A DNA stretch of 64,000 nt, from positions 110,593 through 174,592 of the forward strand of contig CAYGEH010000001.1 of the NCBI GenBank assembly GCA_964348895.1, read 5' to 3'. The notes beneath the pieces are model-generated. The model saw only the letters and a list, made by a program, of their open reading frames with translations. It had not been told where the DNA came from and searched no databases. Position numbers and translations under genes: made by a program. How positions within the stretch are numbered: the stretch's first letter is position 1; each line of letters begins with the position of its first letter. Positions 117 to 26,991 of the stretch are shown here, piece after piece. The DNA is from an uncultured Gammaproteobacteria bacterium. GTDB taxonomy: Bacteria > Patescibacteriota > Microgenomatia > 0-14-0-10-38-17.

Positions 117-190
117 CGGGGATTAGCGCAGATGGCTAGCGCGCGCGCATGGGGTGCGTGAGGTCGCCGGTTCAAGTCCGGCATCCCCGA
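117..190 (+). tRNA. tRNA-Pro (anticodon GGG)
   Basis: A 74-nt cloverleaf was read by eye. Acceptor stem is CGGGGAT/ATCCCCG. D arm is GCGC-AGATGGCTA-GCGC. Anticodon arm is CGCGC-AT GGG GT-GCGTG. T arm is GCCGG-TTCAAGT-CCGGC. Discriminator is A and no CCA is encoded. C1-G72 is typical of bacterial tRNA-Pro. Confidence 0.75.
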
Positions 191-1736
191 CTAAATAGGA
201 ATTGACGATGTTTCAGGAGTGTCATAAATGGTTCTTTTAGTTGATATGACGCCACTTTTTCATCATCAACTATCCAGTTCGCAAAGATTTGACGGCAAAT
301 CATATCTTTACCCACAGCATCAGCAGATTGGATTGTGGTTACGGCATTTTTCGACAAGTTCGCAAGCTCCTCAAGTGTCATTGGTTCTGTTTCCGACTTC
401 TTTAGTTCCTCCTCTAACTTTACGATATCCTTAGTAAGAGCCTTACAGTCATTGTCTAACTCTCCTATGTGCTTTTCATTCTGTTGGTAGATAACGCTTT
501 TAGGATCAAGTTTGAGGATAGCTATACTGGACTCTGCTAACTCTCGTTCTTTGCGTTTGAGTATTGCCCGTTTGGTATTCAACTCGCCTCGTAAAGCGAT
601 CTTACGGTCACCTGAGAGGTGTTTCATACCATCTAAGTACTGTTGGTATTCCTTGTCCGTGAAGTTTAATCCCTCTTTGAGTAGCTCTGCCACAAAATCA
701 AGAAAAACTTTGACTCTGATTGATTTTTTCTTTCGTTCACAACCTTTACTGCTACATCTGGCATACAGGTAGCGATCCTTTTATTACTACTGGTTGCAGG
801 TGCGACTCTCATTGTCTGATTACAAGTAAGAGCACAAAATCATCAGCCTTAACGGATAATAATTATCTCTATGTGGACTTGATGGTTTGATTCTCCGATA
901 TGTCATCTATTGAATGGTTATAAAATCCTCCTCTGTTGTCGCTGGTACAAAATCATAGATGAGGCGTAAATCGGTAGTCTGTTGAGCTTGATTAAGCATT
1001 CCTTAATAAAAGCTATCTTTGAACATGTCGCTTAATTTCTGCTTGGTCATATATGTTTTACGATTGGTTGATTTAATCTCACGGTAAAACCTTGATCGTT
1101 CAGATATTTAGTAATTGTCTCGATAGGCTCACCTTTGACTCTCATACTCCATGCGTCACAAATAAGCTCATGATTACGATCGTCTGGTCTATACGGTTCG
1201 CTTTCATCACGAACATAACCATACTTTGGTGCTGGTGATTTACCTTCTGCGAGATCGCTTCGTACACCCCTTGTAACATCTTGCGATAATAACTTATCGC
1301 TGTACTGCTTGGATAACACAAACGCCATGCCTAATAACATCTTTCCGTTAGCATCTTTGGTGAAGTGATGGGTGACAAACTTGAGATCTTTGATGATGCC
1401 CTCATCAACCATATTGATGATTTCACCACCCTCAAGCATGTTCCTAGCTAATCTGTCTGGATTCCATGCAAGAATAGCGTCATATTTGCCGTTGTAGATA
1501 TCCGTGAGCATTTGACGAAAGACTGGACGCTTCCCTGGTGTCTTGGCTGATTTTGTCTCGATAATTAGTTTACCAAAAACTTGTAACTGTCCTCGTGCTG
1601 CAAAGGCTAGGCACTCATCAATCTGATCTGGAATGGACTTTACCTGTCGAAACTCGTCCTCAGATGATTTGCGTACATATAAAACATATCTCAGTTTTGT
1701 AAAATAAATTACATCCTCGTATCCGTAAAGCCCCAT
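172..1736 (-). pseudogene. Large serine recombinase (resolvase/invertase-type integrase), fragmented by frameshifts and stops
   Basis: ORF 1047..1736 encodes the N-terminal catalytic domain (YVRKSSEDE with the active Ser, DRLARN) and the recombinase domain (APKYGYVRDES). Region 694..1046 translates in pieces across three frames with several stops; one piece (~740 coding region) carries a CSSKGC zinc-ribbon-like motif. ORF 172..693 gives the coiled-coil C-terminal region. The 3' end overlaps the tRNA-Pro 3' end (172-190). Confidence 0.7.
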
Positions 1737-1790
1737 ATGACGTGTATTTTACAACAACCTCATTCATAAAGATTATGGTAAAATCACAAT

Positions 1791-2384
1791 ATGAGTGAAA
1801 GTCAACTTGATTCATTTTTAAGAAAAGAATTTTTGCCGCTGAAAGAATTACCTGATAATCCCGATTTGATTGATGTTCGTATGAATACTTGGGGGGTAAC
1901 AAGAGCTGATCATACTAATCCTATACTAAAAACAATAGGATTGGGTCCATGTGTTGCCGTAGCACTTTATGAACCAGATTTAAAAATTGCAGGTCTAGTA
2001 CATATGACAGCACCAGCAATGACTCCCAGATGGGAAGCACCCCATCAAGATATCTTAAATATGCTTACAGCCATGCAGCGAAATGGTGTTTCATGTGACG
2101 CACGAAAAAACATAAAAGCACATTTAGTAGGTGGATGGGCACATGATGATTTAGCTGCGCTTGCGAAGGAAAGACTACACCAGCTTGGTATAGATCAAAT
2201 TCTGACAGACATGCGTACCGAAGGCGTAGACCATCATTGCATTGCATTGGACTCAAGGTCAGGAGATCTTTTCAAATTGATAAAAATTATGCAAGATGGT
2301 ATGGATACACTTGATGTAATGCGCGCAATGATTAAAGTGAGAGATGGTGCAAGTGTAACTTCAGATCATAGATCACTAAGGTGA
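1791..2384 (+). CDS. CheD-like (chemoreceptor glutamine deamidase fold) family protein, orphan
   Basis: Motif IGLGPCVAVALYEPDLKIAGLVHMTAP matches the CheD signature (LGSCVAV...AHVMLP) with the Cys/His catalytic pair. Downstream VGGW and GID..LTDMRTEG segments are colinear with CheD. No other chemotaxis genes are in the window. Confidence 0.6.
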   Translation: MSESQLDSFLRKEFLPLKELPDNPDLIDVRMNTWGVTRADHTNPILKTIGLGPCVAVALYEPDLKIAGLVHMTAPAMTPRWEAPHQDILNMLTAMQRNGVSCDARKNIKAHLVGGWAHDDLAALAKERLHQLGIDQILTDMRTEGVDHHCIALDSRSGDLFKLIKIMQDGMDTLDVMRAMIKVRDGASVTSDHRSLR

Positions 2385-2451
2385 CATTTACCAAACAAAT
2401 CCATTACTGATCTGCTAAATCTCTAAACACATCGACTGCTATTGATGTAGG

Positions 2452-2916
2452 TTATAGCCCTTTGCGTAAGGATTGTACTCGTTGAAGCTCATGTAAGGCT
2501 CGATAAAATTGACGCTCACATGCTGTAATGTAACGCACGTATGTTTTATCCAACGTTTCATACTCTGAGTTTCCAACTTGAATACTGTCGGTTTCCTCTG
2601 AAGTGTAGCGAATCATAGGCATCATAAATCCTTGTGTTAAAAAAGCCTTTTCCGCTTGTATAGCTCGTTGCATACGCATATAGGCAATCACCATAGGCTC
2701 AAGGAGCAAGTCCTCAGTGACACCGTGAGGCTCATATTCAGCTAAAAGAAGTGAGAGTATAGTTTGAGCTTCATCCTTTTCCGTAGATATCAAAGTTCTT
2801 TGAAGTACACCATGACGGATAGCGTTGTACTTGGAGATCTCTTTTCCTGCTTCGGTTTTAACTCCTGCGTTTTGTGTGTTTGTCCTATTTGCTGATATTT
2901 GAGCCTGTGTTGCCAT
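2452..2916 (-). CDS. hypothetical protein (island cargo)
   Basis: 154-aa ORF of higher GC. It overlaps the upstream ORF 2790..3269 by 127 bp in another frame. No recognisable motif. Confidence 0.35.
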   Translation of the reverse strand: MATQAQISANRTNTQNAGVKTEAGKEISKYNAIRHGVLQRTLISTEKDEAQTILSLLLAEYEPHGVTEDLLLEPMVIAYMRMQRAIQAEKAFLTQGFMMPMIRYTSEETDSIQVGNSEYETLDKTYVRYITACERQFYRALHELQRVQSLRKGL

Positions 2917-3269
2917 AATTCATAGTTCGCATCACTTCTTCTTAATAGGAAGCTACTTGGATCGTCTACGCCTTTGAACGTTTGTGAGCGTGTCTCCTCA
3001 TCATTAAAGGTTATTCTGTTACCGTGATTGTCCACCATACTATCTTTATTGAGTTTCGCTTCAGGTGTATCTGTTTTAACCTTTTTCATTGACCCTACAA
3101 GCTCTGTAATAGGTTGTGGTGAGGTTTGTGGAGCGGTTGGTTGAGTGGAAAGTGCGACACCTGTCGCATCTGTGGTTTTCGTAGGTACGTTACCAGCTTG
3201 GTTAGGCTTCTTGATACTAGCTGGATTGTCTACTCCGTAAAAGATTTGCATCTTTCCATTAGTATTCAT
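2790..3269 (-). CDS. hypothetical protein, Thr/Pro/Gln-rich N-terminal region (island cargo)
   Basis: 159-aa ORF. Its 3' end overlaps ORF 2452..2916, so a frameshifted single gene or a shorter true extent is possible. Confidence 0.35.
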   Translation of the reverse strand: MNTNGKMQIFYGVDNPASIKKPNQAGNVPTKTTDATGVALSTQPTAPQTSPQPITELVGSMKKVKTDTPEAKLNKDSMVDNHGNRITFNDEETRSQTFKGVDDPSSFLLRRSDANYELWQHRLKYQQIGQTHKTQELKPKQEKRSPSTTLSVMVYFKEL

Positions 3270-3698
3270 ACCTAATCTGATTATACTTCATTTGAGCTTG
3301 GTTTTGTAGCGATAAATAGAGTATATTTTTATCATATGAGCTATAATTCCAGTAAGAGATAACTGACTCGTACACTGGTTTTAGTAGTTCGAGCTTTATC
3401 GCTTTATCTCGACTAAATTAAGAGAAAGGGTTCGTCGAGGCGGAGACTCTTCGTGTGCCACCAACTACACGAAGCCTCGCAAAGATCTTTTTTGTATTCT
3501 ACCGAGAGCTGCCGATTAGCTAAAAACAAATCGAGCCAGCTTGAACCAGCCTCCTAAACTTTGCTGATTTCTCCTGAAGTTTAAATTTGACTTTTCAGGG
3601 CTTATTTTTTTGTTTGTAATTTTTGGGGTTGACGACACTGTCAAGGCAATCATTCAAGAGATCTAAATTTGTGCTATATTTTTTTATAGAGACTCATA

Positions 3699-4499
3699 AT
3701 GGAAATGGAAAATCATATTAATATGGGCGACCAAAACGCTCAACAAGCCAAGCAAGGTCCAGTTAGTCAACCTTCTCAGCTACCAAATAAACCAAAAACA
3801 AACTGTTGGATGATTTCTACTGTTGTTTTGATAGTTCTGCTTCTGTTAATTATGGTGGCGCTTATAATAAACCTTGAAAGAATCACCAACAGCAGGCCAT
3901 CTCCAGAAAGCACACCGAGAGGAAACAACAATGAATCAATAATTTCTACTCCGCAACAAACGATTACCCCAACTCCTGCCTCTAGAGAAAATTTAATTCC
4001 AGCCCCAGAACCAGGATTCAAGCAATATTTAGATGAAAACCTAAGATATGGATTTAGCTACCAAGATTCACTTTCCCTGTCGAAATGTGCCGATATTCCG
4101 TGTGCTTCGATAGATGCAATATCGTTACGAATAAATCCGCTTGAGGCTTTTCATTTAGCAGAACCAGATCCAAAAGCAAGTCTTCTTGCTGGCGATCTAT
4201 ACTGTGATGCAGGGGGACCGATGGAAAACATAGAATGCAAAAATACAAAAGTGGAAGATTTTACAAATTTACTGGGTTTTGGGGGATTTAAAATATATCG
4301 TACAAAAACCGTAACAAGAGGCGATGAAGAAATTCCCGCAGAAGTTTTTCAAGACATTGCTTATGTTTTTCCACTAGAGAAAGTGGCGAATGGTCGGGGA
4401 TTGACCAATTTTGCGGGCATACTTTTTGCTGTAGATACGACGACAAAGTCTAACCTCTCGTCTCTTGAAGAAATAGTTAATTCTTTTTTCAGTTTCTAA
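3699..4499 (+). CDS. membrane-anchored hypothetical protein (N-terminal TM helix, Pro/Thr-rich linker, Cys-containing extracytoplasmic domain)
   Basis: 266-aa ORF. Hydrophobic segment ISTVVLIVLLLLIMVALII is followed by a low-complexity linker and a Cys-rich domain. An extended -10-like TGcTATATT lies ~20 nt upstream. Confidence 0.5.
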   Translation: MEMENHINMGDQNAQQAKQGPVSQPSQLPNKPKTNCWMISTVVLIVLLLLIMVALIINLERITNSRPSPESTPRGNNNESIISTPQQTITPTPASRENLIPAPEPGFKQYLDENLRYGFSYQDSLSLSKCADIPCASIDAISLRINPLEAFHLAEPDPKASLLAGDLYCDAGGPMENIECKNTKVEDFTNLLGFGGFKIYRTKTVTRGDEEIPAEVFQDIAYVFPLEKVANGRGLTNFAGILFAVDTTTKSNLSSLEEIVNSFFSF

Positions 4500-4801
4500 A
4501 CTTTTACGAAACAAAAAGTAAATCGCGCGCGCAAAAAATAGCGGAAGCGTGACGCCCGTATTTGTCTTGCTAGAGTTGCGAGGACGCCCTCCAGACGACT
4601 GAATTAACTTTTGCACAAATTCGGTTATAATTTTTTCGTAAATTTCGACCAAGCGAAGCTTAATGGATTTTGCGGACAGCTTGTTATTTTACTCACCACG
4701 CCACAAAAACAAGTCTAATTACCTAAGGTTTGGGACTTTTATTAGATAATTACAGGGCGAGGAAAAGAAAATAAGGTGCTAAAATCTATTAGCAATAATT
4801 T

Positions 4802-6590: not shown

Positions 6591-8191
6591 GAATAAACCT
6601 CAACCGGCCAGTAACGAGGTTGAACAGGATAAAGACGGTCAACTTCTAGTTCTTTTTTAAGGTTGCCTGTAATATACTCCCTAACCCCACTTGGCAACTT
6701 AGTTTCCCAGCTTTCTAATAAAATTAGACCCCGAGAATTGTCAGCAACAACCCCCTTAAGCTGATCTAGGTCCCAAAGGTGTCGTGCCCCCGAAACTGGA
6801 TCGATTTCTGTTTTGTGGTTGGGCACCCTTAATAAATAATCAAGGCCGCCTTCACCTAAATACCAAATAGGGTGATCGTTCCAGTTAGAAATAAAAACTG
6901 CTTCTGGGTTCGCCTGTAGTTCTTTCTCAATGAAAGCATAAATTTTTTTATAATCAACTTCAGGAACCTCTTGCATATCTTCACTTAAAGAATAAAACCT
7001 CCTAGGACGCAGGGTAAATTTATGACCCATAGTGGCAAAAAGCAAGGCAAGCAACAGCAAAAGCACAAAGCCTCCTCGGGGGCGAATTAATCCAAGCTGA
7101 CGAGGCAATCCCTTCCAAGAAGAAAGAAAATAAGAAGCCTCAGTCAAGCCAATCGCACCAAGAAGAATTAAAAAAGGAAAAACAATATAGAAATAACGGA
7201 CAAATGGCTGAGGCAATAAAAGAGAAATCAAGGTAATTTGAAGTGCAAGAGGAAAGGCTAAAAAAGCTAGTTTTAACCATTCTTTTCTTATAAAAAGAGC
7301 TAGTCCCCCTATTAGGGCCAAGAGAACTAAGGCTGGATAATCATGCCAAAGAAAAACTCGATAATAAAAAAGATTATTAACTCTGCCTAGGCTGGAAATT
7401 ACTGCCCAAAGGTGGCCTCTAAAAGCATAGATCAGGGGAATACCAGCCAGAAAACTAAGAGGGAGCCATTTCTTTATTAAATTAAACCGAAAAACGGCCA
7501 AAAACAAAACACCAGCCAAAAGAATTACTATTCCCAAGCCATGCAAAAGCGAAACCAAAACTCCGCTTCCCAAAAATCCTAAAAAATAACGCCAATTAAG
7601 CTTCTTTTCCTTTACCAATCTCCAAACAAACCAAAAAGCGAGCAAATAAAAAAACTGCATCGCTTGATATGGTCGGGCTTGGCGAGACCAAAGAATTTCA
7701 ATATTTAAGAAGGTGATAAAAAAGGCGGCCAGCAACGGAATAAGTTCTTTTGCTGACGGTAAAGTTAAACAAGACGAAGCCTTTGTTTTTTCCGAAACAG
7801 AAAGGGGAAACAATTCTCTTCCCAACAGCCAAATCGCCCAAATTGTTAAAACGCCAAAAATAAGCGAAGGAAAGCGAAGTGCAAATTCATTCAAACCGAA
7901 AATCCTTGCCGAAACCGCCCCTAACCAATACCAAAGCCACTGATAAACTCCAGTAGAGTAGCCATGATCTAAAACTGGCTGACCCCTTTCTAATATCGCC
8001 CTAACAAAAATGGCGACATGACCCTCATCATTCCAAAAAGAATAATTATTTCTTAAGCCGTAAAACCGATAAAAAAACCCAACAAGCAACAGAAAAATTA
8101 AAGTAATTTTTGAACCCAGCTGTTTTGACCACTCCGGAAATGTTTTACTGGAAGTGGTTTTTTTGGCTTCGGCCTTGGTTTGCCTCTTCAT
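6569..8191 (-). CDS. glycosyltransferase family 39/83 (ArnT/PMT-like) polytopic membrane protein
   Basis: Multi-TM protein. N-terminal FYRFYGL...FWNDEG and a long hydrophobic core are typical of ArnT/PMT-like undecaprenyl/dolichyl-phosphate sugar transferases. Confidence 0.6.
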   Translation of the reverse strand: MKRQTKAEAKKTTSSKTFPEWSKQLGSKITLIFLLLVGFFYRFYGLRNNYSFWNDEGHVAIFVRAILERGQPVLDHGYSTGVYQWLWYWLGAVSARIFGLNEFALRFPSLIFGVLTIWAIWLLGRELFPLSVSEKTKASSCLTLPSAKELIPLLAAFFITFLNIEILWSRQARPYQAMQFFYLLAFWFVWRLVKEKKLNWRYFLGFLGSGVLVSLLHGLGIVILLAGVLFLAVFRFNLIKKWLPLSFLAGIPLIYAFRGHLWAVISSLGRVNNLFYYRVFLWHDYPALVLLALIGGLALFIRKEWLKLAFLAFPLALQITLISLLLPQPFVRYFYIVFPFLILLGAIGLTEASYFLSSWKGLPRQLGLIRPRGGFVLLLLLALLFATMGHKFTLRPRRFYSLSEDMQEVPEVDYKKIYAFIEKELQANPEAVFISNWNDHPIWYLGEGGLDYLLRVPNHKTEIDPVSGARHLWDLDQLKGVVADNSRGLILLESWETKLPSGVREYITGNLKKELEVDRLYPVQPRYWPVEVYSWGIARD

Positions 8192-8532
8192 GTTTTTTTA
8201 GTCTTTTTAGTCTCTTGTAAAAATTCAATTACCATCTGGACTATCCCCACCACTAAAAACATATAGGCCCAAATAGCAGCTTTTTCAGCAATTAAGTCTT
8301 TTTTTAAAATTAATAAAATCGGACAGGTAATTAAAAATCCCAGTGCTCCTGTCACCGAAATTCTGCCTTTAAATTTATAAAGCCAAACAGACAGAACCCA
8401 AAGGCCTGTTAATAAAAAAATAACTAAATCAAAGGTTGGATTGAAAATAAAAATATCAAACAAAATCCCCGCTCCTGTGCCAATTAATATCCAAAATTTA
8501 AATTTCTGCAAAAATTCTTTAATTTTTCTCAT
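8188..8532 (-). CDS. small membrane protein, apparently the detached C-terminal fragment of the large membrane protein gene at 8947..12456
   Basis: 114 aa with 3-4 TM helices. The reading frame upstream of its ATG runs without a stop through the 34-bp repeat copy at 8597..8630 and encodes QPQRLFYLGLFISGLTLIGSLGYLGYGLIKRKK-MRKIKEF. This continues the C-terminus of the big gene. ATGA start/stop overlap with the GT39 gene. Confidence 0.5.
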   Translation of the reverse strand: MRKIKEFLQKFKFWILIGTGAGILFDIFIFNPTFDLVIFLLTGLWVLSVWLYKFKGRISVTGALGFLITCPILLILKKDLIAEKAAIWAYMFLVVGIVQMVIEFLQETKKTKKT

Positions 8533-8596
8533 TTTTTTCTTTTAATTAAACCATAGCCCAAATACCCCAAAGACCCAATCAAGGTTAAGCCTGAAA

Positions 8597-8630
8597 TAAA
8601 TAAACCCAAATAAAATAAACGCTGGGGTTG
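8597..8630. repeat. 34-bp perfect direct repeat, copy 1 (taaataaacccaaataaaataaacgctggggttg)
   Basis: Identical 34-mer recurs at 9021..9054. The two copies flank the GIY-YIG gene. Confidence 0.85.
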
Positions 8631-9020
8631 TCCCAAGAACTTTTTTTAAAAGTTCAGGGACAATTAACCCTGAATTTATAGTTTTTATAATAGTTCTTCA
8701 ACCTGGTGTTTATGAATTTGGTTCCCCATCTGCCCTTTAAGTATTTTTCGCGATTTTTGGCGTCAACTTTGTTTAAGCAAGCTTCGTAATAAATAAGCCT
8801 AAGGGGTGTCCTATTTTTAGTTGAGATGTTTGTTCCTTTATTGTGTTCATCAATCCTTTTCTTTAAGTTTTCGGTATATCCAATATATCTTCTCTTGTCC
8901 TTTAGGCTTTCTAAAATATAAGCGTAAAACATAAAAATTATAAATTCTAGGCGTTTAATTTATTCCGAAATTTATCATATATTAAATAAATGATACATCC
9001 TATAAAAACAAAAATACTTA
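8631..9020 (-). mobile_element. putative GIY-YIG gene insertion cassette (inserted segment between the direct repeats)
   Basis: The segment between the repeats carries the GIY-YIG ORF and a 24-codon replacement 3' end plus stop (SIFVFIGCIIYLIYDKFRNKLNA*) for the interrupted host gene. Confidence 0.5.
8654..8932 (-). CDS. GIY-YIG nuclease family protein (YhbQ/UPF0213-like, 92 aa)
   Basis: FYAYILES...RRYIGYTENLKKRIDEHN matches the GIY-(10-11)-YIG motif with conserved Arg, Glu and Asn. Confidence 0.75.
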   Translation of the reverse strand: MFYAYILESLKDKRRYIGYTENLKKRIDEHNKGTNISTKNRTPLRLIYYEACLNKVDAKNREKYLKGRWGTKFINTRLKNYYKNYKFRVNCP

Positions 9021-12000
9021 TAAATAAACCCAAATAAAATAAACGCTGGGGTTGGAACTCAATTATCACTTCGTAATTTTCCCTTCCTCCGCTGTCTTCT
9101 GGAGTAATATACCAAGAGTTGGCATAACCATTAACCAGTAAATGACGCTCTTGAGGAAGCGGATCTTTGCCCCAAGTCTCAAAAGTGGCTTTTTCTAAAA
9201 AGATGTTGCGATGAACACCTTCTTTTATTTCTCCGTCAAAATAACTGGCCACAATTTCTTCTTGATTTTGCGTTGTTCCTCTTAAATTTTCTGTTTTATT
9301 AATATAAGCTCTCCAGCCCCGATGAAAGCTTTCAGAAAAAATTAAAGTGTATGGTTCTTTGGCTCCTTCTACTCTAACCCGATATTTTGTTGGGTTAATC
9401 TTGGTAAAGGTAATTCTTGGCATTGCCTGCTCCTCTTGGTTAATGTTTTCTGTTTTGGCGCGCAACATTATTTTAGGCCTGACAACTTTTCTTACCTGTA
9501 AATTTCTAAACTCCACCTCGGCAAGCTGATCTAAATCAGCTTGGGAATAAAAATAAATCTTGGCCTCCAGAGCATTTTTATCCGCAGTTAAAAATCCTTC
9601 AAACTTTTTCCACTCTTCAGTTGAGCCCTGATTCTTTAAATTCTTGGTAAATATTTTTGTTATTTTCGTTCCCTCTTCTGCCTCTTTTCTTCTTTCTTCT
9701 AATACGCCAACCCCCAGGCTTCCCTTCTCGATTTTGTACTCAAAAGTCAAATAATAAAAACTATCTGCTTGCCAATCATTAATTTCTTGAAAAACAAGAT
9801 TTTCTGCCCCAGGAAAGAACTCTTGGGGAAAAAATCCAACCCCTTCTTCTGCCTTTTCCAGCTCTTTCCTTGTCTGCCAGTCGGGGCCAACTAAATTAGC
9901 CGACTCTGGTAGGCGAAGGGTTAGTTTGTTTTTTCCTTGATTAAATTCTTCCCTGCCAATCTCTGTCCAGCCTTCATTGGCGACTAATCTTCCTTCTTCT
10001 ATTTGTATTTCTCTGCCCTCTGTTAGTATTTCTAGACCTGTCAGCTGGCTAATGTCTTGAATAAACAGCGAATAGATTCCGCTTTTAGGAACCTCAAAGC
10101 TATATTCCAGATTTTTTAAGTCGCCACTACCCAAGGGGTCAATTTTTTCGGCTAATTCTGCAAACATTTTTCTCCACTCGTCTGCTGTTGTTTCTCTCCC
10201 TTGCTTGTTAATAAATATTTTTTCTACTCTTTCTTGATGCGCCTCCCAATAGGCCCCAATTTTTATCATCATTTCTGTTCTCTTTTCTGCTTTTGGTAAT
10301 TGCTTGGCTTCCTCTAGGGCTTCTTCCATTTTTAGCCGATATGCCCTTAGGGTAATTCCTTGAACTCTTTTTTCTTCTCCCCAGCTCTCTAGTTCAGAAA
10401 TTCTCTTTCCCGCATAAAATAATTTCTTTTCAATTAATTCTTCTTGATTGTTTCTTACCCTCCATTCCTCTAACCATTCTCTGGCTAAAGCCAAGCGATA
10501 GGCAAGGCTTCCCGGCTGATGACGAACATGGGGAAAAGGAACGCCAATTTTAAAGTTATCTCTTTTTCTTGTTTTTTCAAAAAAATTATCGCCAATACTA
10601 TTTTCTAGGTTTGTTTTAATAAAGATTTTATCCGCCCGACTTCTTAGTTTGCTAGCTGTTTCTTCTTTTAGCTCACCAGTCTTAGTTAAATAAATTCCTG
10701 ATCTTATTTTGTAATCCTCAAATCCAACTACATCAACTAAGCTTTCAATTCCTCCAGTTGAGTAAATTATGTTTTGGGGAATATAAAAGTGGGGAAGAAA
10801 ATTGTTATTTTCAAAAAGTGAAACCTTGTTCCAATCCATTACTAAGCTTAGGTTTTGTAAGCTTTTTAATGTTGATGTTATTTCTTCTCCGCTTTTTTCT
10901 CCAAATAAGACATTATTCCGCACGGCAACATATTTAGCTCCAATCAGGGGCAACATTTTTTCTAGGAATTTTCCTTCTCCTCTCTTTGTTTCTTCGGCTA
11001 TTTTTAAACCAATAATAGACCCTGGATTGTCTAAATCTCGATCAGAAATCGCCCAACCTCCTCTTTTGGGAGAAAAAATAGCAAAAATATCAACAATTCC
11101 TCGATATTCACCCAAAAAATTTTTGTTGTCATTAGGTTTTAGCACTCCTCCGATGGGAAGATATAAAACCTTAACCCCCTCTTTTTGTTTTTCCAAATAA
11201 CTTTCCAAACTAAAATATTCTGAAGGAAAACTATAAGCTCTTAACCTAATATCATGTTGTTTTTTTTGCTCTTCAAACAATTCCCCACCCCAAAACGGAT
11301 AGGCATTAAGAAAAAGCAGAACCACCAAAAATCCTCCAGCGAAACGAAAGGCTTTTTTTTTCTGTTTAAAAAGAAAGTTTAAAAACAGTGTTGTTAAAAC
11401 AACAAAAGAAAAAGAGGGAAGAACCAAAAACCGCCCCATATCTCTGAAAACGTCTGAAAACGGCAATCTGCTAATAAAATGCGGACCAAAAGAAAAAAGA
11501 ATTGGTGTGACTAAGGCAATGAAAACCAAAGAAATTATTAGTTTTTTTTTAGGGAAAAAGATAATTGAAAGAAAAGATAGAACTGGTAAAAGAAAAGACA
11601 AGGGGACTAGAATTTGAGGATAACTTGTTTCATATTGATAATTAAATAAACTTCCCCATAATCTTAAAATATTTAAATAGCTTAATCTTGTCCAGGTTCC
11701 TAAGCTTGTAGGCGAAAGACCAAATCTTGTTGTAAACAATCCACTTCCACCGCTAAAAAGAGGGGGTGCCCACCAAAAAGCGCTTATTCCTAAAAAAACA
11801 AAAAATATAATGAAAATAGATTTTAAATAAACAGCGAAGCTTTTTTTGTTATTAATAAGAAAAAAAGCAAAAGAAAAAAAGGTTAACGGATACCAAAAAA
11901 CAGCTTGCGACTGAAATGCTGCCAAAAAATAAAGGAAACCAACCAAAACTGAATAAAAGAATCTTTCTTCTTGAACTGACTTAATAAAAAGGATTAAGGC

Positions 12001-24824: not shown

Positions 24825-25511
24825 ATGAGAAAGAGAGAGAAAGAGAACAGCGGGTTCGATCCGGCTCCATTGCCGTGGTACTGGAAAAGGGTGTTGTTGG
24901 TGTTCCTCCTCGTTCTTGCGGCCGCCGCAACGGTACTAGGACTTGTTCTGGTACGCCCGTGGACACAAGGAGGGAGAAACAAAGCAGGGCTCATTGCCAC
25001 CACGACAACTGTCCATCCCGAGGCGGTCGTCGCGCAAACGACTCCAACGGTTGTTGTCTTGATGAAGACAGCGACTCCCGAGGCGGCCGTCGCCGTGCCG
25101 CAGACAGTAGTCTGCAGTGTACAGGTTCGACTCGACGAGGAGGACCCGTACTGGAGTAACGCTTCGGCGCTACTCCTTGTTGAAGGCTGGTGTGCTCTTG
25201 TAGAACGAGACCAGGCTTGGCAACAGGTCAGGGACGAAGAAGCTCTTCGAAAAACCTGGAAAGAAGGGGCCACAGAAGATTATCTTCTTTTGTGCAACCC
25301 TGGACCAGGGTCGAGGCTGTTCAACTTACAGGACTCCTTTGGAGGCCGGCCACCAGACTGGTGGAATGACCAGGCAAAGGCTGTTTTGCTCTTCCGCCTC
25401 CCTGGTGTGACTACCAGCGATGATCTAGTCATCGCCGTGTTGTACGAACACGACGATGACCAACTCGAAGAAGGATGGGAATTCCCCATTCTTCTCCCTC
25501 ACCAGAACTAG
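24825..25511 (+). CDS. hypothetical membrane-anchored Ala/Val/Thr-rich protein encoded in a GC-rich (~58% GC) segment
   Basis: 228-aa ORF with N-terminal TM helix WKRVLLVFLLVLAAAATVLGLVLV and very high GC3. An AGGAGA RBS sits 6 nt upstream. All other ORFs overlapping it are GC-driven artefacts. Confidence 0.5.
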   Translation: MRKREKENSGFDPAPLPWYWKRVLLVFLLVLAAAATVLGLVLVRPWTQGGRNKAGLIATTTTVHPEAVVAQTTPTVVVLMKTATPEAAVAVPQTVVCSVQVRLDEEDPYWSNASALLLVEGWCALVERDQAWQQVRDEEALRKTWKEGATEDYLLLCNPGPGSRLFNLQDSFGGRPPDWWNDQAKAVLLFRLPGVTTSDDLVIAVLYEHDDDQLEEGWEFPILLPHQN

Positions 25512-25528
25512 CACGCGTCAGCATCGCA

Positions 25529-25545
25529 TCTTTCGGCCCAAAAGG
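25529..25545. repeat. right inverted repeat (tctttcggcccaaaagg) of the GC-rich cassette
   Basis: Pairs with 24783..24800. Confidence 0.5.
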
Positions 25546-25665
25546 AAGGGGGATTAAGCGGGAAGCAATGAGCTTTCTGACAAAAGATTCATCACTTATG
25601 TGATGTTCTTTTTCAGAAGCTTATGCTTCTCGCTCCCCCGTCCGCCCTTAATTTTTAAACAAAAA

Positions 25666-26991
25666 ATGAAAAAGTTTATTGTGGTTATCTTAATTAGTTT
25701 TGTTCTGATTATTTCTTTTTTGCTGGTTAATTTTTATGGCTTTCTTTCTGGGTTCCTGTTCTTGGTGACCATTTTCCTGCTTTGTCAGGGCTCCTTTGCC
25801 ACTTACTCTATACTTTCCTCTTGGTTAAATCCAGAAAGTTTAAAAAAAATTTCTCCGCCAAAAGATTTCTCCCAAAATCGGCTATTCTTCTCCTTGATTA
25901 TTCCGGTTAGAAACGAGGAAAAAGTCATTGCCCAAACCTTGGCGGCAATGAAAAAAATTAACTACCCTCGCGATAAATATGAAATTATAATTACCGCTCG
26001 CGACGATGACACTAAAACTGTGGGAAAAATTTTGGAATCACTAAGCCACCTTCCTCCCACCTTTAATTTATTAGTTTGGGAAAACTTTCCCAATTCTAAG
26101 CCTCAAGGCTTAAACGCCGCCCTAAAATATACTCAAGGAGAAATTGTTGGCATCTTTGATGCTGAAGATGAACCTCATCCAGACATTTTAAACGCCGTTA
26201 ACACCACTTTTATAAACAAGAAGGTCGACATTGTTCAATCGGGAGTTCAGTTGGTTAATGTTGACTCTTATTGGTATTCTCCTCATAATTGTCTAGAATA
26301 CTATTTTTGGTTTAAATCGGTCTTGCCCTTTTTCTCCTCTTGGGGCGCTAACCCACTTGGGGGGAATACTGTTTTTTTTAAAAAAGCTATTGTTGGGGCT
26401 GCTGCTGGTTGGGATGAAGACTGTTTAACAGAGGACGCTGAGATTGGTGTTCGATTGTCGTCTTTGGGTAAAAAAACTGCCGTTATTTATGATGAAGAAA
26501 TAGCCACTAAAGAAGAAACTCCTCCTAGCTTGGGCGGCTTCATTCGCCAGCGAACTCGCTGGCATCAGGGGTTTTTTCAGGTTCTTTTAAAGGGAAACTG
26601 GAAAGATTTGAAAAATAATCGCCAAAAGGGAATTATTCTTTATCAAATGACTTATCCTTTTATGCAAATTTTTAATTCTTGCTGGCTTTTGATCACCCCC
26701 TTCTTGGCTTTTTTTACTAAAATTCCCCTAGGAATAGCTCTTTTTTCTTATCTCCCTGCTTATTTTTTCTTGATTCAATTGGGGGTTTCCTTAATCGGTC
26801 TTTATGAATTAAACAAAAACTATCAACTTAAGTTTTCACCTCTAGTTTATTTTAAGTTTTTGGTTTTCTTTTTTCCATATCAATTCGTTATTTCTTTGGC
26901 CACCCTAAGAGCAATCAAGAGGCAGTTGGCGGGATTAAATTTTTGGGAAAAAACTGAACACATTAACGCTCACCGAAAAGCTTTTTCTTAA
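25666..26991 (+). CDS. processive family-2 glycosyltransferase (cellulose/chitin-synthase-like, QxxRW class), integral membrane
   Basis: SLIIPVRNEE...DDD, DAED (DXD) and QRTRWHQG (QxxRW), with N- and C-terminal TM helices. MKKFIVV at 25666 is taken as the start; the ORF opens at 25600. Confidence 0.7.
   Translation: MKKFIVVILISFVLIISFLLVNFYGFLSGFLFLVTIFLLCQGSFATYSILSSWLNPESLKKISPPKDFSQNRLFFSLIIPVRNEEKVIAQTLAAMKKINYPRDKYEIIITARDDDTKTVGKILESLSHLPPTFNLLVWENFPNSKPQGLNAALKYTQGEIVGIFDAEDEPHPDILNAVNTTFINKKVDIVQSGVQLVNVDSYWYSPHNCLEYYFWFKSVLPFFSSWGANPLGGNTVFFKKAIVGAAAGWDEDCLTEDAEIGVRLSSLGKKTAVIYDEEIATKEETPPSLGGFIRQRTRWHQGFFQVLLKGNWKDLKNNRQKGIILYQMTYPFMQIFNSCWLLITPFLAFFTKIPLGIALFSYLPAYFFLIQLGVSLIGLYELNKNYQLKFSPLVYFKFLVFFFPYQFVISLATLRAIKRQLAGLNFWEKTEHINAHRKAFS

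Follow-up and report, generated by a model that had tools for sequence, protein, structure and literature searches.

A 64,000-nucleotide stretch of contig CAYGEH010000001.1 (assembly GCA_964348895.1, positions 110,593 to 174,592), referred to here as the window, was analyzed for the remains of an integrative element that lie beside a proline tRNA gene, tRNA-Pro(GGG), and that include the pseudogene of a large serine recombinase (LSR). The relatives of its RecA protein indicate that the host is a member of Candidatus Shapirobacteria, and leftward of the window the source contig runs into recA, recX, rny and HU.

The LSR pseudogene is located on the minus strand and converges on the tRNA gene. 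Its two longest surviving pieces are an N-terminal open reading frame (ORF) of 229 aa (1047-1736) and a C-terminal ORF of 173 aa (172-693). The TGA stop codon of the latter, at 172-174, falls within the 3′ end of the tRNA gene, which results in a convergent overlap of 20 nt. Three-frame translation of the minus strand over positions 1-1800 showed that the parts of the LSR are distributed over two frames. The lesions responsible were placed by tblastn against the best homologue and by direct reading of the sequence, and they consist of three frameshifts and two nonsense codons (Table 1), which leave four frame segments and six open pieces. The frame-corrected protein has 520 aa and could be aligned from end to end with intact homologues of 511-535 aa, the best of which is 76% identical.

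The domains of a large serine recombinase were recognizable in this corrected protein, with the zinc ribbon falling just below its cut-off. Pfam Resolvase (PF00239) matched residues 18-166 with an E value of 7.8e-20, and the motif YVRKSSEDE aligned with R22-K23-S24, which are invariant in the family. The Recombinase domain (PF07508) scored 21.6 bits against a cut-off of 21.1, and this domain is precomputed on many of the homologues. The zinc ribbon (Zn_ribbon_recom) scored 24.9 bits against a cut-off of 25.3 in the repaired protein, and two of its four cysteines are in a shifted frame in the window; the family alignment contains four invariant cysteines (C302, C305, C328 and C333), and PF13408 is precomputed on many homologues. 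In an AlphaFold model of the C-terminal 245 residues, made from the single sequence, the coiled-coil insert formed a long helical hairpin at model residues 61-120 with a predicted local distance difference test score (pLDDT) of 81-95, while the remainder of the model was poor. An original prediction, which was made from the sequence alone, had described a tRNA-Pro(GGG) at 117-190 whose 3′ end is overlapped by an LSR broken into at least four frame-shifted pieces between 172 and 1736, with its domains lying in different frames. All of this was borne out, the zinc-ribbon piece (RCSSKGC) and the tail with the coiled coil included, and the alignment to intact recombinases that had been suggested is the one by which the three frameshifts and two nonsense codons were mapped.

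Element boundaries and the conserved distal fragment

The far end of the element was found by comparing homologous elements. A generic repeat finder returned only low-complexity families and no boundary, and the tRNA 3′ end is not repeated in the window even when three mismatches are allowed. What the two ends share is much shorter. The 9-mer CGACTAAAT occurs at just two sites of the 64 kb, at 188 and at 3410, and the left copy includes the last bases of the tRNA gene (CGAC, 188-191), which constitute the shared core. Read in the direction of the LSR, the distal site is TTTAGTCG-AGAT.., and the LSR end is TTTAGTCG-GGGA... Because the opening bases of the distal block repeat those of the LSR/tRNA junction, the element was mapped to 188-3413, about 3.2 kb with the LSR included. 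The tRNA-Pro genes at these loci end in CGAC followed by TAAAT, which indicates that CCA is not encoded by these genes.

Comparison with related genomes, which had been proposed as a check, revealed the unoccupied site. In three genomes with RecA proteins 86-90% identical to that of the host (L117-L119), tRNA-Pro(GGG) adjoins recA with no recombinase behind it, and in two of them (L117/L118) the site reads ..GGGCTTGTCTTG-GTCG-GGGATGCCGGACTCGAACC... The tRNA-Pro/recA locus is therefore polymorphic for the element. At the syntenic tRNA-Pro/recA position of a more distant complete genome (CP055307.1, L002), an intact LSR with 65% identity is found.

Every element that was compared carries a conserved block of about 150 nt at its distal end, immediately upstream of a gene designated F1. 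This block, called the tail here, has the consensus S/C/G-R-D/E/Q-G-A-I-K-L-E-L-L-K-P-V-Y...L-Q-N-Q-A-Q-x-K-Y-N-Q-I-R-Y-E-Y-stop, and a profile search raised the number of elements that end in it to about 20. Its stop codon (3259-3261 in the window) overlaps the start of F1 (3267-3269), and the overlap sequence TATGAATACTAA is kept throughout the elements. Among nine elements, the differences in the tail fall on the three codon positions in the ratio 395:204:603 (50:54:129 for codons 3-13 alone), which is the pattern typical of selection on a protein. In seven of nine loci, no ATG, GTG or TTG is present between the nearest upstream in-frame stop and the conserved start of the tail, and that stop is often only 2-10 codons away. 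The window copy has no start codon ahead of codon 14 and has an in-frame TAA two codons upstream.

The tail is in frame with the end of the LSR. In the window, the LSR end (..LFSR) and the tail are in register across the shared core, and the codon phase of the core was the same at both places in every locus checked, being xGT CGN in the tail and xGT CGG at the LSR end. Two relatives located at tRNA-Leu genes have a different core, AGT GCR GA (AGTGCRGA) or ATT GGT GG (TTGGTGG), which in each case equals the end of the target tRNA gene, and the LSR-to-tail frame is kept in both. The phase of the core, the coding-type divergence of the tail and the covariation of the core with the tRNA all show the LSR frame to be continuous across the reconstructed attachment site attP. 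AlphaFold modeling of the C-terminal LSR region plus the tail, done with no alignment, gave a mean pLDDT of 55, with the tail as two helices at a pLDDT below 50, and is not interpretable.

Table 1. Positions of the tRNA gene, element genes, lesions and junctions in the window
Feature	Position	Strand	Details
tRNA-Pro(GGG)	117..191	+	Intact; integration target; ARAGORN 117-191, Rfam RF00005 117-190 (56 bits)
LSR pseudogene	172..1736	-	1.56 kb; Pfam, tblastn, sequence reading
LSR lesion 1	T run 1086-1089	-	1-nt deletion (QGF/YREIK)
LSR lesion 2	1003-1005	-	TAY to TAA (DSFY-stop-GML vs DSFYYGML)
LSR lesion 3	907-909	-	CAG to TAG
LSR lesion 4	824/825	-	1-nt insertion within first CxxC
LSR lesion 5	~775-778	-	1-nt deletion
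attL junction	188..196	+	Left copy of 9-bp direct repeat CGACTAAAT: tRNA end CGAC and first element bases
Cargo ORF, 197 aa	1791..2384	+	Intact; variable cargo; homologue in one other, also decayed, element
Element gene F2 (o154)	2404..2916	-	ORF now 2452-2916; AAA to TAA at 2452-2454; homologues in L005, L113-L115
Element gene F1 (o159-like)	2932..3269	-	ORF now 2790-3269; 1-nt deletion between 2955 and 2954
Conserved 51-codon tail fragment	3262..3414	-	SRDKAIKLELL...YNQIRYEY; still open in window
attR junction, distal boundary	3410..3418	+	Right copy of CGACTAAAT; host DNA resumes rightward

The overlap between the LSR and a tRNA gene is not peculiar to the window. At E<=1e-10 the LSR has 989 homologues, and the named ones are almost all from Patescibacteria; at least 599 loci encoding relatives turned up when one genome per species was scanned. 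The survey of loci was made on the best 80, of which 53 have full-length LSR matches, and 47 of these 53 have an LSR frame that extends into a convergent tRNA gene by 8-126 nt. The first four intact homologues (L001, L002, L005 and L008), which lie in differing host surroundings, all end in a convergent tRNA-Pro with an overlap of 20 or 56 nt. The closest clade of LSRs targets mostly tRNA-Pro, the two tRNA-Leu relatives are 53-54% identical, and clades at 29-40% identity target the tRNA genes for Leu, Lys, Met, Ser, Gln, His, Val, Asp, Ile or Ala. All 120 of the listed homologues stop at approximately the same point past the conserved C-terminal motif, and the tail is present in none of them. 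Most of these end with ..SRG or GRG and a few variable residues, which matched antisense readings of the tRNA in the loci examined. Judged from these sequences, the overlap of the LSR end with the tRNA gene is a conserved trait of the family, not an accident.

The proposed position of attP and alternative explanations

We propose, with a probability of about 80%, that the interval 188-3413 of the window is a dead miniature integrative element and that its active relatives carry attP inside their own LSR gene. On the excised circle, attP would lie within the 3′ end of the LSR frame, and this frame would continue from ..LFSR through a 49-residue tail to F1. The target site attB would consist of the last bases of the tRNA gene and its trailer. 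Crossover is predicted to occur within GTCG (read in the LSR direction), at the very end of the tRNA gene, and would leave the tRNA body untouched; the circle junction (attP) would read ..CCTATTTAGTCG|AGATGGAGCGAT... Integration would cut the LSR frame after ..LFSR, add 3-18 arbitrary antisense-tRNA codons until a stop is reached, and carry the remaining 49 codons, along with F1, which overlaps them translationally, to the opposite end of the element.

If attP is located inside the LSR gene, three otherwise separate features would follow from it. The C-termini of the LSRs would vary over 3-18 residues depending on the tRNA, the LSR would have no stop codon of its own ahead of the tRNA gene, and a protein-like fragment that has no start codon would be conserved at the other end of the element. 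The LSR may then exist in two isoforms according to the state of the element, with the circle encoding the LSR plus the 49-residue tail, coupled to F1, and the integrated form encoding a tail-less LSR. We suggest only tentatively, and regard as less probable than its opposite, that this swap acts as a switch of recombination direction, activity or stability. The window copy itself, which has three frameshifts and two nonsense codons, does not have the intact LSR gene that an attP x attB reaction would need.

Several results weigh against an attP within the LSR frame. Neither a circle nor an attP junction was directly observed in the protein and DNA sets searched. A word-indexed search of 5.8 billion proteins returned no LSR-plus-tail fusion protein, and no fusion was present among 1.84 billion cluster representatives, in which all 14 tail matches were ORFs of 45-135 aa. 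The attP junction pattern, which covered only the L005/L008-type (two of five variants), was not found in viral contigs or in the metagenome contigs of the Joint Genome Institute (JGI). A JGI metagenome scan anchored on the tail protein gave four loci, all of them integrated forms, and phage and plasmid collections yielded no match. The absence of the junction is weak evidence, because assemblers normally discard a rare junction of this kind. The reconstructed attP shows no clear dyad symmetry, with at most 0.37 symmetric positions compared to about 0.25 expected. The host flank provides a start codon in some genomes, and there the tail could be produced as a short peptide of its own. In the saccharibacterial tRNA-Lys clade, with elements of about 2.1 kb, the continuation is only about 12 codons long; the long tail is therefore specific to the Pro/Leu clade and not universal in the family. 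Finally, the continuity of frame between LSR and tail could in part be a frozen accident maintained by spacing constraints on the att arms.

The explanation that competes most directly is that the distal block is a small gene in its own right, or an att or promoter sequence that acts at the DNA level, and that a complete LSR gene is followed closely by attP. Gene callers do report ORFs of 45-135 aa that end in the tail in some genomes, an ATG is supplied by the host flank in L005, L113 and L062, and the fused protein has never been observed. The last eight codons of the tail also overlap a TATAAT-like motif and the start of F1, and their conservation could be partly regulatory. A separate gene is difficult to reconcile, however, with third-position-biased divergence that begins right after the core, in codons that have no upstream start in seven of nine loci. 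It also does not account for an LSR frame that has no stop of its own before the tRNA gene in 47 loci, or for a core phase that is the same on both sides in every locus checked, including the tRNA-Leu variants with a different core. We therefore consider this explanation unlikely, and an attP inside the LSR gene remains the preferred one.

Three other alternatives concern the nature of the window copy. The frameshifts and stops could be errors of sequencing or assembly in an LSR that is really intact, and one of the lesions is indeed a length change in a T homopolymer (1086-1089). However, the source is a short-read MEGAHIT assembly, and the window is 100% identical to a 106.7-kb contig of that kind (ENA ERZ27247803). 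In three other samples or runs, contigs match the window at 100% identity over their own length, and one of these (L011, 632-2830) spans all five LSR lesions. The TAA and the TAG each arose by a base substitution, lesions are also present in F1 and F2, and the same neighborhood with the same split gene calls was seen in all 10 contigs that have an identical RecA. Sequencing error is excluded for practical purposes, and the chance that the LSR is intact is negligible. An alternative genetic code was ruled out as the source of the stops, which are both TAA and TAG and occur together with three frameshifts. It has also to be considered whether the remnant belongs to a prophage or genomic island of greater size, reaching past 3500, for example by way of a 266-aa membrane protein and glycosyltransferase genes. 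From 3699-4499 onward, the ORFs either lack a family assignment or are of accessory type, and synteny with the examined relatives does not include the right flank. In opposition to this, both the junction repeat and the conserved tail, the feature with which all related elements end, are located at 3410-3414, the homologous elements of 2-6.5 kb end at the tail, no gene to the right of 3421 recurs in related elements, and neither a PHROG match nor a GC contrast was found; a larger island is very unlikely. Lastly, an LSR that always adjoins a tRNA gene and occurs widely in reduced genomes could be a domesticated host enzyme tied to tRNA loci. Such an enzyme is highly improbable given that the element is present or absent at the tRNA-Pro/recA locus between close relatives, that the flanking host genes vary by locus, that the cargo is variable, and that about one third of the copies are pseudogenes.

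Other genes, related elements and flanking loci

The genes between the LSR and the tail show that decay is not confined to the integrase, the gene that the original prediction had described as broken; the broken LSR was confirmed, and F1 and F2 carry a frameshift and a nonsense codon of their own. The F2 nonsense codon lies 16 codons ahead of the ancestral stop (2404-2406), and tblastn reads through it. The deletion in F1 removed the ..IKKK-stop end of the protein, and the ORF now runs on for 42 codons to 2790, across F2. Homologues of both genes (o159 and o154) recur upstream of the LSR in related elements, and F1 was present in all 15 that were compared. With five lesions in the LSR, a frameshift in F1 and a nonsense codon in F2, the window copy is fixed in place and eroding. 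A DNA motif, TGGATTTGTTTGGTAAA, is found directly 3′ of the F2 stop (window 2395-2425) and is kept in all five of the F2-bearing elements, which include L005 and L113-L115. The 197-aa cargo ORF shows weak, sub-threshold similarity to CheD chemoreceptor deamidases and the XopAK effector family, and has an unusually low third-codon-position GC content (GC3) of 0.24; an AlphaFold model of its product, made with no alignment, had a pLDDT of 35 and was unusable.

In size, composition and identity, the element departs from what had been predicted. A cargo region of about 3 kb was expected to follow the integrase, and instead the whole element measures about 3.2 kb with the 1.56-kb LSR included; the gene for the 266-aa membrane protein (3699-4499) and everything beyond it are outside. 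The predicted distal end at 3500 came within about 90 nt of the mapped boundary at 3410-3413 and was not exact. The reported GC contents of about 44% for the region and 34% for the rest were not reproduced. GC content is 39.7% for the element (192-3421) and 39.5% for 1737-4736, compared to 37.6% for the remaining window with a standard deviation of 1.9 points in 3.2-kb windows, and 13% of the host windows are at least as GC-rich as the element. GC and GC3 were rejected as boundary markers since the contrast is too small to use, and the GC plot that had been advised for the distal boundary was of no help. The 1-kb bin with the highest GC content in the window is 25001-26000 (47.2%, compared to a mean of 37.7%).

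The reading as a genomic island or prophage remnant with a pseudogene for an integrase held in so far as there is an integrative element at tRNA-Pro and its LSR is dead; the prophage part did not hold. No phage structural, packaging or replication genes were recognized, as the ORFs of the element had no PHROG matches, and F1, F2 and the 266-aa neighbor had no matches in PHROG, PADLOC, Pfam or NCBIfam. The LSR is the sole enzyme that could be recognized in the element. A prophage was rejected on the absence of PHROG, PADLOC or Pfam phage or defense matches and on the total size of 3.2 kb. Inoviruses have been reported in the Candidate Phyla Radiation (PMC6813254), and an inovirus was rejected likewise, since the element is only 3.2 kb long and its ORFs match no PHROG or Pfam phage family. 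In IMG/VR the LSR family has only distant partial relatives, and in GenBank phages it has none; a phage origin is unsupported because only these distant partial relatives exist in IMG/VR. The combination of a tyrosine recombinase and a displaced tRNA 3′ fragment is also absent, as the recombinase is of the serine type and the repeat is only 9 bp.

Related elements measure 2-6.5 kb, and in 7 of 21 tail-bearing elements the LSR is broken or largely deleted, which makes erosion in place a common fate of these elements. That about one third of the copies have decayed suggests frequent capture and erosion at tRNA loci. One remnant of 2.1 kb (L115, 10001-12156) retains only the last ~69 LSR codons, and in another decayed copy (L116, 960-5054) the LSR is split over several frames like that of the window. 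In the intact tRNA-Pro element of L008, the cargo includes a 610-aa AAA_15 / OLD-like TOPRIM ATPase (7352-9184), the TOPRIM part being a faint Pfam match, and this suggests that some elements ferry defense-type genes. In Saccharibacteria, six elements at tRNA-Lys (L035, L036, L037, L038, L040 and L044) are approximately 92% identical, measure only ~2.1 kb and have differing host flanks. They consist of the LSR and ~0.5 kb with a 51-aa ORF and a hairpin-rich leader, and may be among the smallest LSR-borne mobile units.

The intergenic region between recA and tRNA-Pro seems to be an insertion hot spot. In three Shapirobacteria (L120-L122, ~9400-10000), it contains a GIY-YIG ORF, GCGCACCCCGCTGGGCAGAGC-type repeats and an extra partial half of tRNA-Pro, and in L119 (~9780-9940) a second, degenerate piece of the tRNA-Pro 3′ end is present. 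The flank that follows the tRNA gene in L120 (CTACTTTTA-GTCG) resembles an arm of the element itself. Elsewhere in the window, a perfect 35-nt direct repeat (8596-8630 and 9020-9054) surrounds an ORF for a 92-aa GIY-YIG endonuclease (~8654-8932, minus strand), and its right copy falls in the 3′ end of an adjacent gene for a 1169-aa protein. The site at 8596-9054 looks like a homing-endonuclease insertion in which the end of the gene was duplicated.

Comparison with known systems

Taken by itself, the locus is an ordinary pseudogenized integrative element. What makes the LSR family distinctive is that it targets conserved tRNA 3′ ends, that its elements are as small as ~2 kb, and that its own C-terminus is apparently rewritten on integration. 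Serine integrases are important tools in genome engineering, and their directionality normally needs a separate factor. If the proposal is correct, the family would offer a self-contained mechanism of directionality or state sensing, as well as a collection of natural integrases whose targets are defined by tRNAs. The family would also represent a very common and previously unnoticed class of mobile DNA in the tiny genomes of Patescibacteria, in which the routes of gene exchange are poorly understood. An incomplete search of the literature found no LSRs specific to tRNA 3′ ends, miniature elements of this kind, split LSR gene or wide distribution in Patescibacteria, and the family is provisionally regarded as undescribed. 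A full-text search listed a large survey of LSRs (PMC10083194) with zero occurrences of the term 'tRNA'.

The LSR shares with the large serine integrases (phiC31, Bxb1, TP901-1, A118 and SPbeta, as well as CcrB and XisF) the Resolvase and recombinase domains, a probable zinc ribbon and the coiled-coil insert, and its elements share with theirs a short common core and the absence of long direct repeats. Similarity to the solved or named members is very weak, at an E value of 2.7e-5 for the catalytic domain of TP901-1 and 57 bits against a cut-off of 375 for XisF. In contrast to these integrases, which have protein-coding targets, the present family uses tRNA 3′ ends, is borne on elements of 2-6.5 kb, and is proposed to have attP inside the LSR frame.

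A partition of the integrase gene is known from archaeal viruses of the SSV1 type, whose integrase is a tyrosine recombinase. There, attP lies within int, and integration splits int into large N-terminal and C-terminal parts. The present elements resemble the SSV1 type in that integration would partition their own integrase gene, and differ in that a C-terminal tail of 49 residues would be exchanged and the integrated LSR gene would otherwise be complete.

Islands at tRNA genes that use tyrosine integrases (Islander-type and P4-like; PMC4383910) are similar in their location on the 3′ side of the tRNA gene, in an integrase that abuts the tRNA gene and in the preservation of tRNA function. Unlike them, the present elements use a serine recombinase and lack a displaced tRNA fragment of at least 15 bp at the far end, with just four bases of the tRNA in common (9 bp in this copy). 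Tycheposons of Prochlorococcus are likewise small cargo-carrying elements at tRNA genes of streamlined genomes, and a minority of them use an LSR; 910 of 937 use tyrosine recombinases, many carry replication genes, and neither a relation to the present LSR family nor a split recombinase gene is mentioned in the available part of that report (bioRxiv 10.1101/2020.12.28.424599).

A parallel to a change of C-terminus upon integration comes from mycobacteriophages such as BPs (PMC4557955). In these phages, which use a tyrosine integrase, attP is located inside the repressor gene, and integration alters the C-terminus and the properties of the repressor. The two systems are alike in having attP in a coding region and a C-terminus that is changed by integration, and they differ in that the gene affected here would be that of the serine recombinase itself, for which a functional effect is only proposed. 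Engineered fusions of an integrase to its recombination directionality factor show that a serine integrase can be made to run in the opposite direction by an extension of its C-terminus (PMC5737554). If the LSR does change its C-terminus between circle and chromosome, this isoform switch would be a natural counterpart both of these fusions and of the integration-dependent immunity of the mycobacteriophages.

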